DNA of 15,321 bases from a virus (IMGVR_UViG_2698536443_000012); one strand, 5' to 3'. Positions 1,488 through 15,180 are shown, numbered from the stretch's first letter. Notes: generated by a model from the letters alone, not told the origin. A program made the numbers and translations.

Positions 1488-1545
1488 AAAAAGGGCGGCA
1501 GAGCAGTCACGGAGTAAAACTGATACCGCCAAACGTCACCAGAAA
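1488..1545 (-). ncRNA. dicF: DicF small RNA (ftsZ-targeting antisense sRNA)
   Basis: Reverse complement of 1488-1545 reads TTTCTGGTGACGTTTGGCGGTATCAGTTTTACTCCGTGACTGCTCTGCCGCCCTTTTT, which matches the DicF sequence as I recall it and ends in a GC stem plus U-run. Exact processed ends cannot be set from sequence. Confidence 0.7.
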
Positions 1546-4086: not shown

Positions 4087-4621
4087 ACAGGTTTGTGAGG
4101 CTCTGGATACCTGGGTATGCCGACCAGGAATGACACAGGAGCAGGCGACGATATTAATCACGGAAGCATTCTGGGCTCTGAAAGAACGCCCGAACATCGA
4201 TGTTCAACGCGTCACGTTTAATGATGGCGAGGTTGATCAACGGGCGCTGGGCGTTAACCGGGTGAAGATATTCGAACGCTGGAAAGCTATCGACACCAGA
4301 GATAAGCGTGACAAATTCACGGCGCTGATTCCGGCAATTATGGAGGCTATCCGGATCAGCGATTTCAGATTGTATTGTGAAATTACTGACGGAAAAAGCA
4401 TTACGTACATGATCGCCGGGTTAAACAAAGAATATGGCGATGTGGTGGAGTCCGGGCTGCTTTTTGCGGATCCAGTTGTTGTGGAACGTGAGACTGACGA
4501 GCTTATAGAAAAAGCTATTGCTTTCAAGCACGCGTATCGTCAGCAATACCAATATTACTTTGCAGATAAACAAATGTCTGCCAGGGGTTCGTATGAGTAT
4601 CGATGCACTACGATGGGCTAA
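4070..4621 (+). CDS. YdaT-like (CII-like) regulatory protein
   Basis: 183-aa ORF overlapping the dicC 3' end by 17 nt. Segment TALIPAIMEAIRISDFRL resembles the YdaT family motif (KLIPAILAILPRELRHRL in Rac YdaT, from memory). Sits in the cII position. Confidence 0.55.
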   Translation: MKITTEQVCEALDTWVCRPGMTQEQATILITEAFWALKERPNIDVQRVTFNDGEVDQRALGVNRVKIFERWKAIDTRDKRDKFTALIPAIMEAIRISDFRLYCEITDGKSITYMIAGLNKEYGDVVESGLLFADPVVVERETDELIEKAIAFKHAYRQQYQYYFADKQMSARGSYEYRCTTMG

Positions 4622-6855: not shown

Positions 6856-7522
6856 GCGGATGGTGCAGGCCTGAAATCATGATACTAACAATGAAGGTAA
6901 AATGCATCGGCAGTCTGATTGGTCGTAGTGAGGCGGCGGTCAGGATGAAAGCCCAGGTTAAGGGAATAAGCCTGATTCTGCGGGGTGATTTTCACCAGTC
7001 AACAAAATATCCGTAGCGCGATAACGGTCAAAAATTATGGCGCTGACACTTTTGTGCCACTGGAGATGACTGTACCTAAGTTCAGGGGAGAAGAACACGT
7101 CCGGTGGGATGGTCGGGCCAGATTTAAAGGGCAGGTCATGGCTCCAGCCTGTACGCTGGCAATGGAGGCTGCCTGGCGGGAAATTGATATGGGAACCACG
7201 CCACTCAGGGATTTACTGCCGGTCCAGAGAATAAATTCCTGTTACGGTTACACCACTGTGATCTTGCAAGTGCAGGAAAGTAGGTCTACACGGTAACGCG
7301 AGTGCGTGTAACTTTTGATGTCATTCCCGTAGAAACACCGGACAAATTTTCGCTGACAGGTCATGCAGAAGGTATAAATCTGCAGATTATGGACAATTAC
7401 GGATATCCGGCAAGAGCCGGAAAAAGCATGCCGCCTCTAATTCTCAGTGGAAGATGGACTTGATTATACTCATTGCATTGTCAGAAATAGTTATCCATTA
7501 AAGGCTGGCTATTCCAAACAGG

Positions 7523-7550
7523 ATGTTGATTACAAAAATGTAATCAACAT
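7523..7550. promoter_or_regulatory. Perfect 12-4-12 palindrome upstream of the binding-protein moron
   Basis: ATGTTGATTACA-AAAA-TGTAATCAACAT in an AT-rich intergenic region about 165 bp upstream of the ATG at 7715. A TATAAT hexamer lies at 7577-7582. Confidence 0.4.
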
Positions 7551-7714
7551 GTAAGGTTTATACTCTTCAATATGCGTATAATTTTCCTTATTTTGTTGAC
7601 TTTAAATAACAAGCTATGCACGAGGTAAAGTCGGATAAGTTTATCTGGATGTAATATATATTATTTGTAGTGTTTATAACTTTATTTCATGATAACCAAT
7701 AAAAGGAGTTTTTT

Positions 7715-8473
7715 ATGAGGAACATAATGGCAGGTTTTTTAATATTCCTGTCTTCTGCTGCTTATGCTGATATCAATCTGTATGGTCCTGGTGGCCCGCA
7801 TACAGCCTTGCTTGATGCAGCCAAACTTTATGCCGAAAAAACAGGTATTATAGTGAACGTTCATTACGGCCCACAGAACAAATGGAATGAAGATGCCAAA
7901 AAAAATGCAGATATCTTGTTTGGCGCATCAGAACAATCTGCTCTGGCTATCATTCGGGACCATAAAGACAGCTTCAGTGAAAAAGATATTCAGCCTCTTT
8001 ATCTGCGAAAAAGTATTTTACTGGTAAAGAAAGGTAATCCTAAAAATATCCGGAGTATTGACGACCTGACCAGACCTGGGATTGGCGTAATTGTTAATGA
8101 TGGTGGTGGTACCAGTAATACATCAGGCACTGGCGTCTGGGAAGATATTGCCGGACGTAAAGGGAATATAGAAACTGTCGCCGCAATCCGAAAAAATATT
8201 ATTTTATATGCGCCCAATAGCGGAACTGCACGTAAGGCTCTTGAGAATCAGCCTGGAGCAGATGTCTGGATAACCTGGGCTGACTGGGCAGCCAGTAATC
8301 CAGAAATTGGTGATGTCGTGGAAATAGCGCCAGACTACGTGATATGGCGTGATATGAACATTACAGTACGTCAGGATGCAAATGATGAAACCCGTCGATT
8401 TGCAGAATGGCTACAAACCGATGAAGCGGCGCCTGCATTCAAAAAATATGGCTGGACCAGGAAAGGCACTTGA
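7715..8473 (+). CDS. Secreted/periplasmic solute-binding protein, ModA-like (type 2 periplasmic binding fold), orphan
   Basis: AAGGAG RBS 6 nt upstream. N-terminal signal peptide MRNIMAGFLIFLSSAAYA then DINLY. C-terminal ...RRFAEWLQTDEAAPAFKKYGWT resembles the ModA C-terminus (...FYDYLKGPQAAEIFKRYGFT, from memory). AT-rich gene with no adjacent permease or ATPase genes. Confidence 0.7.
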   Translation: MRNIMAGFLIFLSSAAYADINLYGPGGPHTALLDAAKLYAEKTGIIVNVHYGPQNKWNEDAKKNADILFGASEQSALAIIRDHKDSFSEKDIQPLYLRKSILLVKKGNPKNIRSIDDLTRPGIGVIVNDGGGTSNTSGTGVWEDIAGRKGNIETVAAIRKNIILYAPNSGTARKALENQPGADVWITWADWAASNPEIGDVVEIAPDYVIWRDMNITVRQDANDETRRFAEWLQTDEAAPAFKKYGWTRKGT

Positions 8474-8479
8474 CATCCT

Positions 8480-8505
8480 CGTCCTTCAGGACGTGGATTC
8501 TTTTT
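8480..8505 (+). terminator. Weak terminator-like hairpin after the binding-protein gene
   Basis: CGTCC-TTCA-GGACG stem-loop followed within 6 nt by a T5 run. A second hairpin ATGCCGC-GCCA-GCGGCAT follows at 8510-8527 without a U-tract. Confidence 0.3.
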
Positions 8506-8808
8506 CCGGATGCCGCGCCAGCGGCATGTAGGGGCAGCTCACAAAACGGAAAAAATTGTACGCTAAGCCTCGCCAGGTGAACTGAATTCATTCCGATATG
8601 GGAATTCCCATATCGGGCGAAAACGGTTTGCTGTAACGGCAGAGTTAAGTAGGATTGCTGCGGGTGCTTGAGGCTATCTGCCTCGGGCATGAACACCAAC
8701 GGCAGATAGATAAAAGCCCCACCCGACTATAAATCGAAGTGAGGCCCCTATATGCTCGTCACATATAGATTGCCTCTTACGGACCGAAAGGTCAAGGAGA
8801 AGCAGGCT

Positions 8809-8964
8809 ATGAAGCAGCAAAAGGCGATGTTAATCGCCCTGATCGTCATCTGTTTAACCGTCATAGTGACGGCACTGGTAACGAGGAAAGACCTCTGCGA
8901 GGTACGAATCCGAACCGGCCAGACGGAGGTCGCTGTCTTCACAGCTTACGAACCTGAGGAGTAA
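8809..8964 (+). CDS. hokD: Hok-family membrane toxin (HokD/RelF-like), with in-frame upstream mok extension from 8752
   Basis: 51-aa ORF MKQQKAMLIALIVICLTVIVTALVTRKDLCEVRIRTGQTEVAVFTAYEPEE, the Hok family signature. The in-frame extension MLVTYRLPLTDRKVKEKQA with GAGG RBS fits a mok reading frame. Confidence 0.85.
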   Translation: MKQQKAMLIALIVICLTVIVTALVTRKDLCEVRIRTGQTEVAVFTAYEPEE

Positions 8965-9032
8965 GAGACCAGGCGGGGGAGAAATCCCTCGCCACCTCTG
9001 ATGTGTCAGGCATCCTCAACGCACCCGCACTT

Positions 9033-12094: not shown

Positions 12095-12170
12095 GGCCCT
12101 TTAGCTCAGTGGTGAGAGCGAGCGACTCATAATCGCCAGGTCGCTGGTTCAAATCCAGCAAGGGCCACCA
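12095..12170 (+). tRNA. ileZ: tRNA-Ile2 (anticodon CAU, lysidine type), ileZ-like
   Basis: Hand-folded cloverleaf: acceptor GGCCCTT/AAGGGCC, D-arm GCTC...GAGC, anticodon loop CTCATAA, T-loop TTCAAAT, encoded CCA. Close to E. coli ileX as I recall it. Confidence 0.85.
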
Positions 12171-12171
12171 A

Positions 12172-12247
12172 CCGCCACTAGCCATCAGGAAAGAGCGTCA
12201 ACCCTTTAAGTTGAGTGTGCGAGGTTCGAGTCCCCGGTGGTGGTCCA
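12172..12247 (+). tRNA. tRNA-like gene, atypical (possible argN-like); identity unresolved
   Basis: Acceptor CCGCCAC/GTGGTGG with one GU pair, T-arm CGAGG-TTCGAGT-CCCCG, anticodon stem TCAAC/GTTGA with loop CCTTTAA (C at position 33, anticodon UUU by position), degenerate D-stem, encoded CCA. Confidence 0.45.
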
Positions 12248-12260
12248 TTATCGGTATTCT

Positions 12261-12334
12261 GCGTTGTTAGCTCAGCAGGACAGAGCAATTGCCTTCTAAG
12301 CAATCGGTCACTGGTTCGACTCCAGTACAACGCG
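12261..12334 (+). tRNA. tRNA-Arg (anticodon UCU), argO-like
   Basis: Acceptor GCGTTGT/ACAACGC, D-arm GCTC...GAGC, anticodon stem ATTGC/GCAAT with loop CTTCTAA, T-arm ACTGG-TTCGACT-CCAGT. No encoded CCA (CTA follows). Confidence 0.8.
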
Positions 12335-13868: not shown

Positions 13869-13943
13869 GGGTCAGTCGTATAAAGGTCATTACGGAAGGC
13901 TGTTAACCTTCTTATCGTGGTTCGAGTCCACGCTGTCCCGCCA
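13869..13943 (+). tRNA. tRNA-Asn-like (anticodon GUU)
   Basis: Acceptor GGGTCAG/CTGTCCC (one T-T mismatch), anticodon stem GAAGG/CCTTC with loop CTGTTAA, T-arm CGTGG-TTCGAGT-CCACG, encoded CCA. D-arm is weak (3 bp). Confidence 0.55.
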
Positions 13944-13948
13944 AACAT

Positions 13949-14024
13949 GCTGGTTTAGCTCCAATGGTAGAGCAACTGACTTGTAATCATCAGGTCGCCA
14001 GTTCGATTCCGGTAGCCGGCACCA
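13949..14024 (+). tRNA. tRNA-Thr-like (anticodon UGU), thrU-like with weakened anticodon stem
   Basis: Near-identical to E. coli thrU as I recall it, except the 3' anticodon-stem strand (TCATC instead of TCAGT) leaves only 3 canonical base pairs. Anticodon loop CTTGTAA, T-loop TTCGATT, encoded CCA. Confidence 0.55.
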
Positions 14025-14027
14025 TAT

Positions 14028-14102
14028 GCGGGTACCGTATAATGGCTATTACCTCAGCCTTCCAGGCTGATGATGCGGGTTCGATTCCCGCTACCCGCTC
14101 CA
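14028..14102 (+). tRNA. tRNA-Gly (anticodon UCC), glyT-like
   Basis: Sequence GCGGGTACCGTATAATGGCTATTACCTCAGCCTTCCAGGCTGATGATGCGGGTTCGATTCCCGCTACCCGCTCCA differs from E. coli glyT (from memory) at only a few positions. Perfect acceptor stem, encoded CCA. Confidence 0.8.
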
Positions 14103-14866: not shown

Positions 14867-15180
14867 TTTTTTTGTTTGCTGTTTATTAAAAACACTTCTG
14901 CATGGTGAATCCCCCTGTGCGGAGGGGCGATCAGCAACCAGGTATATGGGATAATCGCGGATTCAGGTGCTGATACTGAATTCACCGGGAGGCACCCGGC
15001 ACCATGCTTTGCCACAAAAGTGTTGTTTCTGTTTTTCTCAAACTATCATCATTATCCCTTTATTTCCGGCTGCGCATGGCGTGGCCTTTTTTTTACGACC
15101 AGCCACTGGCAGATGGCCATCCTGTAATTTGATTCCGGTTCCGGCTTTTTAACTCTGTTCCTGTACACGGGAGAAATTCG

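Follow-up and report, generated by a model that had tools for sequence, protein, structure and literature searches.

Background

The adfO gene (z2053), which is the same gene as paa, is paired with the hok-type gene ckf (z2054) on O-island 57 (PMC8565820), and the island is itself part of prophage CP-933O, integrated at ompW (PMC8565820, PMC9144400, PMC10562709). Reviews report, second-hand, that an adfO mutant adheres more weakly to HeLa cells and that Paa is implicated in attaching-effacing (A/E) lesions (PMC8565820, PMC9144400, PMC10562709). In EDL933 the gene, under the name 'acfC', is transcribed in bovine gut contents, at a higher level in rectum content (PMC8524897). Known as a virulence-associated gene in attaching-and-effacing as well as Shiga-toxin-producing E. 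coli, paa is a recognised marker of O-island 57, and it is the island that has been associated with the STEC seropathotypes of severe disease. The primary papers on Paa and AdfO are those of Batisson in 2003 and Ho in 2008.

Two relatives of the protein have been assigned other roles. AcfC of Vibrio cholerae is a periplasmic protein with affinity for heparin, chondroitin sulfate and mucin; it influences chemotaxis to mucin and intestinal distribution and has no role as an adhesin (PMC5976639). PEB3 of Campylobacter jejuni is required for normal gut colonisation and binds 3-phosphoglycerate (3-PG) and PEP. The family thus formed has a strictly conserved ligand pocket and lacks transporter partners, yet its members have been given the conflicting roles of adhesin, chemotaxis factor and 3-PG uptake protein.

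In this study we examine the open reading frame (ORF) at positions 7715–8473 of a 15,321-nucleotide stretch of viral DNA (IMGVR_UViG_2698536443_000012), the whole of which is referred to below as the window. An initial annotation of the window had stated that such a gene has no described function in lambdoid phages, a statement that does not hold for a gene matching exactly the published adherence and colonisation factor paa/adfO. Judged by its sequence, the ORF is paa (alias adfO / z2053), a gene that already has a name and is not a new find. We regard it as very probable that the account presented here is right as a whole, namely that the gene is paa/adfO, that it is moron cargo of its prophage and that its product is an anion-binding protein with a role in adherence and colonisation. 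Recognising paa matters to annotation rather than to discovery, and the interest that remains lies in the biochemistry of a family that mobile elements have repeatedly carried.

Identity of the gene at 7715–8473

The coding sequence (CDS) of paa/adfO lies on the plus strand, starts with an ATG at 7715, ends at 8473 and encodes a protein of 252 amino acids that belongs, by its predicted features, to the exported class II binding-fold proteins of the AcfC/PEB3 family. A Shine-Dalgarno sequence, AAGGAG (7703–7708, plus strand), stands 6 nt before the ATG and is kept in both plasmid alleles. By megablast, the DNA of the window from 7400 to 9000 is 100% identical in many EHEC/STEC chromosomes, where it is annotated as paa followed by hokD, and several O157:H7 strains are among those carrying the identical paa DNA. 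PGAP labels the identical chromosomal copies 'paa: AcfC family adhesin Paa' (WP_001449026.1), the best protein match is 100% identical and is likewise named 'AcfC family adhesin Paa', and the PPompW prophage records, also identical in DNA, name the product 'Paa/adherence factor AdfO'. With the CDS alone as query, paa was found in 611 of 5426 complete E. coli genomes, at 582 chromosomal and 36 plasmid placements, with 564 records at least 99% identical. In the phage collection, the only records encoding a family member were 11 PPompW records. PHROGs assigns window positions 7715–8470 to phrog_11834, 'unknown function' (E 4e-176), and a gap in annotation is apparent here, phage-centred resources giving 'unknown function' where PGAP and the pathogen literature name Paa/AdfO.

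The annotated start codon differs between sources, being 7715 in PGAP and 7727 in the LC5678xx phage records; we favour 7715 because the homologues begin MKK... and align to M1. A comparison of the prophage paa with the plasmid alleles gives dN/dS values of 0.07–0.13, which points to purifying selection and to far more than a chance ORF. The opposite strand holds only short, unsupported ORFs (7999–8217 and 8439–8699), and Rfam gave no match inside paa.

The first 18 residues (7715–7768, plus strand) form a predicted signal peptide, called by a rule-based reading of the sequence together with hydropathy. The N-terminus reads MRNIMAGFLIFLSSAAYA up to the predicted cleavage site (AYA before it, DI after it) and DINLYG beyond, and comprises a basic n-region (R2), a hydrophobic core with a Kyte-Doolittle maximum of 2.83 (residues 4–12) and a signal-peptidase-I site in which A-Y-A precedes D. 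The N-terminus has no lipobox Cys, and the mature protein, predicted at 234 amino acids and 25.8 kDa, contains 0 Cys. The constructs used for the PEB3 and AcfC crystals begin at an A-D that aligns with the predicted cleavage site, and residues 1–14 of the AlphaFold2 (AF2) model have a pLDDT below 50. The description of the product in the initial annotation as an exported orphan binding protein is borne out by a real ORF at 7715–8473, its AAGGAG, the predicted signal peptide and the class II fold.

Family membership and the ligand pocket

The Pfam family SBP_bac_11 matches Paa over its full length (E 5.5e-34). A phmmer search against the PDB returned PEB3 (E 1.2e-81, Paa residues 11–248) and AcfC (E 3.5e-81, residues 16–248), with sulfate-binding proteins (E about 1e-4) and ModA (E 0.13) at lower ranks. 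The initial annotation had suggested structure prediction as a check, and the AF2 model obtained (pLDDT 91.9, pTM 0.85; input of 47 homologues, 51–92% identical to Paa) superposes on AcfC and PEB3 at TM 0.95–0.96. In the Foldseek search with this model, AcfC (4jb7) matched at a TMt of 0.96 and an rmsd of 1.3 Å and PEB3 (3fj7) at a TMt of 0.95, the rmsd to AcfC/PEB3 being 1.3–1.8 Å, while ModA structures formed a second tier (TM 0.72–0.79, 12–19% identity to Paa) and sulfate-, iron- and sugar-phosphate-binding proteins ranked below ModA.

As judged by sequence and model, the true family of Paa is AcfC/PEB3/Paa. The protein combines full-length similarity to PEB3 and AcfC and identity to Paa with a class II fold, a predicted Sec signal and the pocket motif of the family. 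The term 'ModA-like' used in the initial annotation is fair at the level of the fold only, since ModA appears only in the second structural tier; at the level of the family it fails, with 12–19% identity and a score of 18.3 bits against the ModA (TIGR01256) cut-off of 62.5, over residues 212–246 alone. Membership of the sulfate/thiosulfate-binding proteins (Sbp/CysP models TIGR00971, NF008022 and NF008106) was likewise rejected under the curated NCBIfam cut-offs, with scores of 21.5 against 155.5, 22.6 against 288 and 19.0 against 308 and matches restricted to about residues 93–146. We also looked for the modB permease and modC ATPase that a ModA would be expected to accompany, and neither is present in the window or in the identical loci.

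The family pocket motifs GPG, S-N-T136-S137-G-T-G, PNSG and W-x-TW-x-DW are all intact in Paa, and the residues invariant in the 47 homologues include G24-P-G26, S134, T136-S137-G-T-G140, E143-D144, G170 and W185/T187/W188/D190/W191. The S-N-T-S-G-T-G motif aligns with residues 136–142 of PEB3, so that T136 and S137 of Paa correspond to T138 and S139 of PEB3. The latter two are ligand-contact residues of PEB3; Min et al., in 2009, reportedly found that mutating T138/S139 of PEB3 abolishes binding of 3-PG and PEP.

The paa cassette

The initial annotation had noted that the gene is more AT-rich than its neighbours, which is correct: the GC content of the paa CDS is 0.439 (GC3 0.348) and that of the 191-bp region upstream 0.257, compared with 0.52–0.53 in the flanks. 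Along the sequence, GC dips to 0.32–0.40 over 7350–8100 and is about 0.51 on either side. The upstream region (7524–7714, plus strand), presumably comprising the regulatory region and 5' UTR, travels with the gene, its homology to the plasmid copies beginning at 7511–7527 with 74–81% identity. The plasmid alleles share 7511/7521–8533 with the prophage, at 86–89% identity in DNA and 92% in protein, and nothing beyond, which delimits a cassette of about 1 kb with an overall GC of 0.41 against 0.52–0.53 in the flanks. This self-contained unit is made up of an AT-rich leader, a ribosome binding site, the CDS and a terminator-like hairpin.

The further claim that the gene has its own AT-rich promoter region is sustained as to the AT-richness upstream and not as to the promoter, a sigma-70 consensus scan having returned 2 sites where 3.3 were expected, neither of them well placed. 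That scan did not report a perfect -10-like TATAAT (7577–7582, plus strand) which stands without a good -35, is conserved in all three allele groups, plasmid copies included, and is a candidate promoter element. At the left edge of the cassette is a perfect palindrome, TTGATTAC-N6-GTAATCAA (7526–7547, no strand assigned), found once in the window where 0.09 matches were expected by chance. This 8+6+8 palindrome, TTGATTACAAAAATGTAATCAA, sits where the homology to the plasmid copies begins, about 50 bp upstream of the TATAAT. It is present in three of the loci compared (L001, L002 and L004), and L003, a plasmid allele, has a degenerate left arm. An operator is one possible meaning of the palindrome and a recombination scar another; because of the degenerate arm in the plasmid allele, we do not claim an operator.

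The 3' end of the cassette is formed by a terminator-like hairpin at 8472–8500, which begins within the stop codon and is followed by U5 at 8501–8505 (plus strand). The terminator scan matched 8480–8493, and the RNA folds at -29.7 kcal/mol (z -2.9). A second hairpin (8504–8534, plus strand) comes after the U5, and the homology to the plasmid cassette ends at 8533.

Prophage context

According to the annotation of the identical locus, the window represents the early part of a Qin-like prophage. Genes for dicB, DicF and a dicA-like repressor lie on the minus strand. On the plus strand a cro-like gene comes first; a YdaT-family gene, a DnaT-like gene, P-like replication genes and DUF1627 follow, then a fimbrial pseudogene and paa, and after these hokD, rem, ydfU, rusA, Q and tRNAs. 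Homology to K-12 Qin breaks off at window position 4349 and is found again from 8795 on, 14 bp before hokD, and K-12 Qin has relB-relE directly upstream of hokD, where the prophage in the window has paa; the initial annotation, which had the gene occupying the place of relBE upstream of hokD, was right on this point. The position of paa between the replication genes and hokD/rem/ydfU/rusA/Q, in the place of relBE in K-12 Qin, and the composition of its cassette, distinct from that of the flanking phage DNA, are those of a moron. As to its expression, the cassette holds the terminator-like hairpin with U5 and the conserved TATAAT, the consensus promoter scan is not above chance, and transcription is reported for EDL933 in gut contents (PMC8524897). 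We conclude that paa is a moron, a cargo gene of lysogenic conversion, in the early-right region of the lambdoid, Qin-like prophage that is integrated at ompW and goes by the names OI-57 / CP-933O / PPompW.

The cassette abuts a degraded gene for a Pap-type minor fimbrial subunit (7021–7554, plus strand), which PGAP describes as 'fimbrial protein, frameshifted; internal stop', and the junction between pseudogene and cassette is visible in the alignment. Intact copies (588 bp) are about 86% identical, with DNA homology from window position 7057 to about 7516; some 260 E. coli genomes have them, as the second gene in Pap-like chaperone-usher operons regulated by PapB. A Pfam search of the three ORF fragments of the pseudogene returned nothing, and the fimbrial identity is based on the PGAP call and the intact DNA homologues of about 86% identity. 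The presence of this scrap of a fimbrial operon next to paa indicates that the cargo region of the prophage is a mosaic.

On the other side of paa is hokD (8809–8964, plus strand), the ckf of OI-57, called hokD by PGAP and matching Pfam HOK_GEF (E 2.9e-23). Rfam finds sok at 8662–8811 (103.9 bits), and a mok-like ORF of 70 amino acids overlaps at 8752–8964, which completes a hok/sok-type locus spanning 8662–8964. Since relBE has taken the place of the leader in K-12 Qin, the locus is retained there only from a point 14 bp upstream of hokD. Elsewhere in the window, Rfam-type RNA features include DicF (1493–1544, minus strand, 76.7 bits), an STnc100 sRNA match (14871–15043, 104.7 bits) and two tRNA clusters downstream of Q, one of 2 genes (12095–12334) and one of 3 genes (13869–14099). 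A locus identical in other respects (L001) lacks the second cluster and carries TerB-family and DUF3927 genes in its place.

Transporter partners in the family

The initial annotation had remarked on the lack of a permease or ATPase partner, and none is annotated in the identical prophage region within about 8 kb on either side of paa. The same holds for the ETEC plasmid copies and for 11 of 12 sampled homologue contexts, which show no adjacent permease or ATPase. The absence of a transporter partner is normal for the AcfC/PEB3/Paa family. The homologue stands alone in Edwardsiella, Francisella, Campylobacter sp., Helicobacter, a metagenome genome, Salmonella and Citrobacter; in V. cholerae it lies in a TCP-like island, flanked by a toxT-like gene and tagA, in Aeromonas it is carried by a P2-like prophage, with gpA and ogr on either side, and it is found in Raoultella adjoining type 2 secretion remnants and in E. 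albertii inside the aga PTS locus. Only the homologue of Enterobacter bugandensis is near ABC genes, being located 688 bp downstream of an Afu/Fbp-type ABC operon on the same strand, and that operon has a binding protein of its own.

The Aeromonas copy (contig from Logan SRR25820356, L014 5001–5774) encodes a Paa homologue 54% identical and lies between gpA and ogr/portal. With this copy in a P2-like prophage, phages of at least two unrelated types carry the family as cargo. The E. bugandensis operon (L008/L009, 313–5750) encodes a 362-aa binding protein, a 589-aa fused permease and a 356-aa ATPase, and is a possible lead to a partner transporter.

A further candidate, put forward in the initial annotation as what would overturn its reading, was that the gene is a fragment of an ABC transporter operon. 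This is ruled out by the identical prophage loci, the 2 plasmid contexts and the 12 homologue contexts, so that the orphan status proposed there stands.

Function of Paa

The published role in adherence and colonisation is the best-supported overall description of Paa. Under it, the protein would cross the inner membrane by Sec and be cleaved after Ala18, and its interdomain cleft would bind a small anionic group, either of the phosphate type, as in PEB3, or of the sulfate type, as proposed for AcfC. Ligand-bound Paa would then help the lysogen to adhere and to colonise the intestine, in line with what is published for Paa/AdfO, acting either as a surface adhesin for sulfated host glycans/mucin or indirectly as a ligand sensor, and it would do so without a dedicated ABC permease or ATPase. 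By analogy with its relative, the case for direct adhesion is weak, because AcfC (52% identical) is periplasmic rather than surface-located and has no role in adhesion (PMC5976639). A conserved pocket for a small ligand is easier to reconcile with sensing or uptake than with adhesion.

One possibility, which we put forward tentatively and consider less probable than its opposite, is that Paa is not an adhesin at all: it may be an orphan periplasmic sensor of a host-derived phospho- or sulfo-metabolite that works through a chromosomally encoded partner. The partner might be an ABC permease, for instance an Afu-type sugar-phosphate importer, or a chemoreceptor. If this were true, AcfC/PEB3/Paa would be a portable 'gut-sensing' module repeatedly picked up by phages and plasmids, the family being found in E. 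coli on a lambdoid prophage, in Aeromonas on a P2-like one, and further on IncF plasmids and on the TCP island.

Binding proteins need not have a permease to themselves; in the sulfate/thiosulfate uptake of E. coli, two binding proteins share one permease. Orphan Paa might in this manner serve nutrient uptake, capturing phosphorylated C3 acids (3-phosphoglycerate, PEP) or similar host-derived anions and handing the ligand to a chromosomally encoded ABC transporter, with the adherence phenotype an indirect effect. The pocket residues, invariant from PEB3 to Paa, and the E. bugandensis homologue 688 bp downstream of a same-strand Afu/Fbp-type ABC operon speak for such a function. We nevertheless think it rather unlikely, both in the capture of these anions and in their transfer to a chromosomal transporter: a neighbouring permease or ATPase is missing from 11 of the 12 contexts and from every E. 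coli copy, whether on prophage or plasmid, no member of the family has a known partner transporter, and the E. bugandensis operon is already equipped with its own binding protein.

Less likely again, and in our estimation distinctly doubtful, is a function in chemotaxis, by which periplasmic Paa would bind a sulfated or anionic mucus ligand, dock on a chemoreceptor and steer the lysogen to the mucosa. Such a mechanism has been suggested for AcfC of V. cholerae, together with the chemoreceptor-like AcfB, and Paa has the same fold and pocket as AcfC, a periplasmic protein whose binding of sulfated glycans and mucin and effect on mucin chemotaxis are on record (PMC5976639). However, no chemoreceptor gene lies beside paa in the prophage or the plasmids, many of the paa-carrying EHEC lineages are non-motile (O157:H-, O111:H-, with O111:H- among the listed carriers), and what was scored for Paa/AdfO was adherence, on cells or explants, rather than motility.

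The remaining proposals, which go back to the initial annotation, are a ModA-like scavenger of oxyanions (molybdate, tungstate, sulfate) or metal and a receptor-masking or superinfection-exclusion factor benefiting the phage, and they are very improbable: Paa and ModA do share SBP_bac_11, and ModA and the sulfate-binding proteins are the next-best structural matches (TM 0.72–0.79), but Paa falls far below the modA and sulfate/thiosulfate cut-offs given above and is 12–19% identical to ModA, nothing was found in support of masking or exclusion, no defence-system model matched (PADLOC, 0 families at E <= 0.01), and a gene that thrives on plasmids and at chromosomal non-phage sites across genera is for that reason not expected to serve a phage-directed function.

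Comparison with known systems

The most distant of the systems considered are the ModA and Sbp-CysP proteins of ABC importers, which resemble Paa in their class II fold, in SBP_bac_11 and in a mature size of about 230 residues; they differ from it in sequence, with 12–19% identity and scores below the family cut-offs, and in that Paa has no modBC or cysUWA-type neighbours. PEB3 of C. jejuni (2hxw, 3fj7, 3fir) is 52–55% identical to Paa, has the same fold (TM 0.95) and is likewise encoded by an orphan gene. Unlike Paa, it is the product of a chromosomal core gene and is an N-glycoprotein, and its glycan-proximal K135 corresponds to Thr133 in Paa.

AcfC of V. cholerae (4jb7) is 52% identical over the full length and shares with Paa the signal peptide, the pocket motifs and the absence of ABC partners, and both are encoded on mobile virulence DNA. 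The acfC gene is part of the TCP island, where it follows the chemoreceptor-like acfB and is controlled by ToxT, whereas paa is without such neighbours.

Closer still are the porcine ETEC-type IncF plasmids (NZ_CP097214.1, NZ_CP043824.1), which carry the same cassette as a single gene without transporter partners. In contrast to the prophage copy, the plasmid paa is flanked by IS1 and lies beside an STa enterotoxin gene and IncF replication genes, has no fimbrial remnant upstream and is labelled by PGAP only as 'substrate-binding domain-containing protein'. The adfO(paa)-ckf locus of OI-57 / CP-933O, finally, has the same gene with ckf/hokD downstream and replication genes upstream, as in the window, and from the OI-57 and PPompW records the locus differs detectably only in the annotated start codon.
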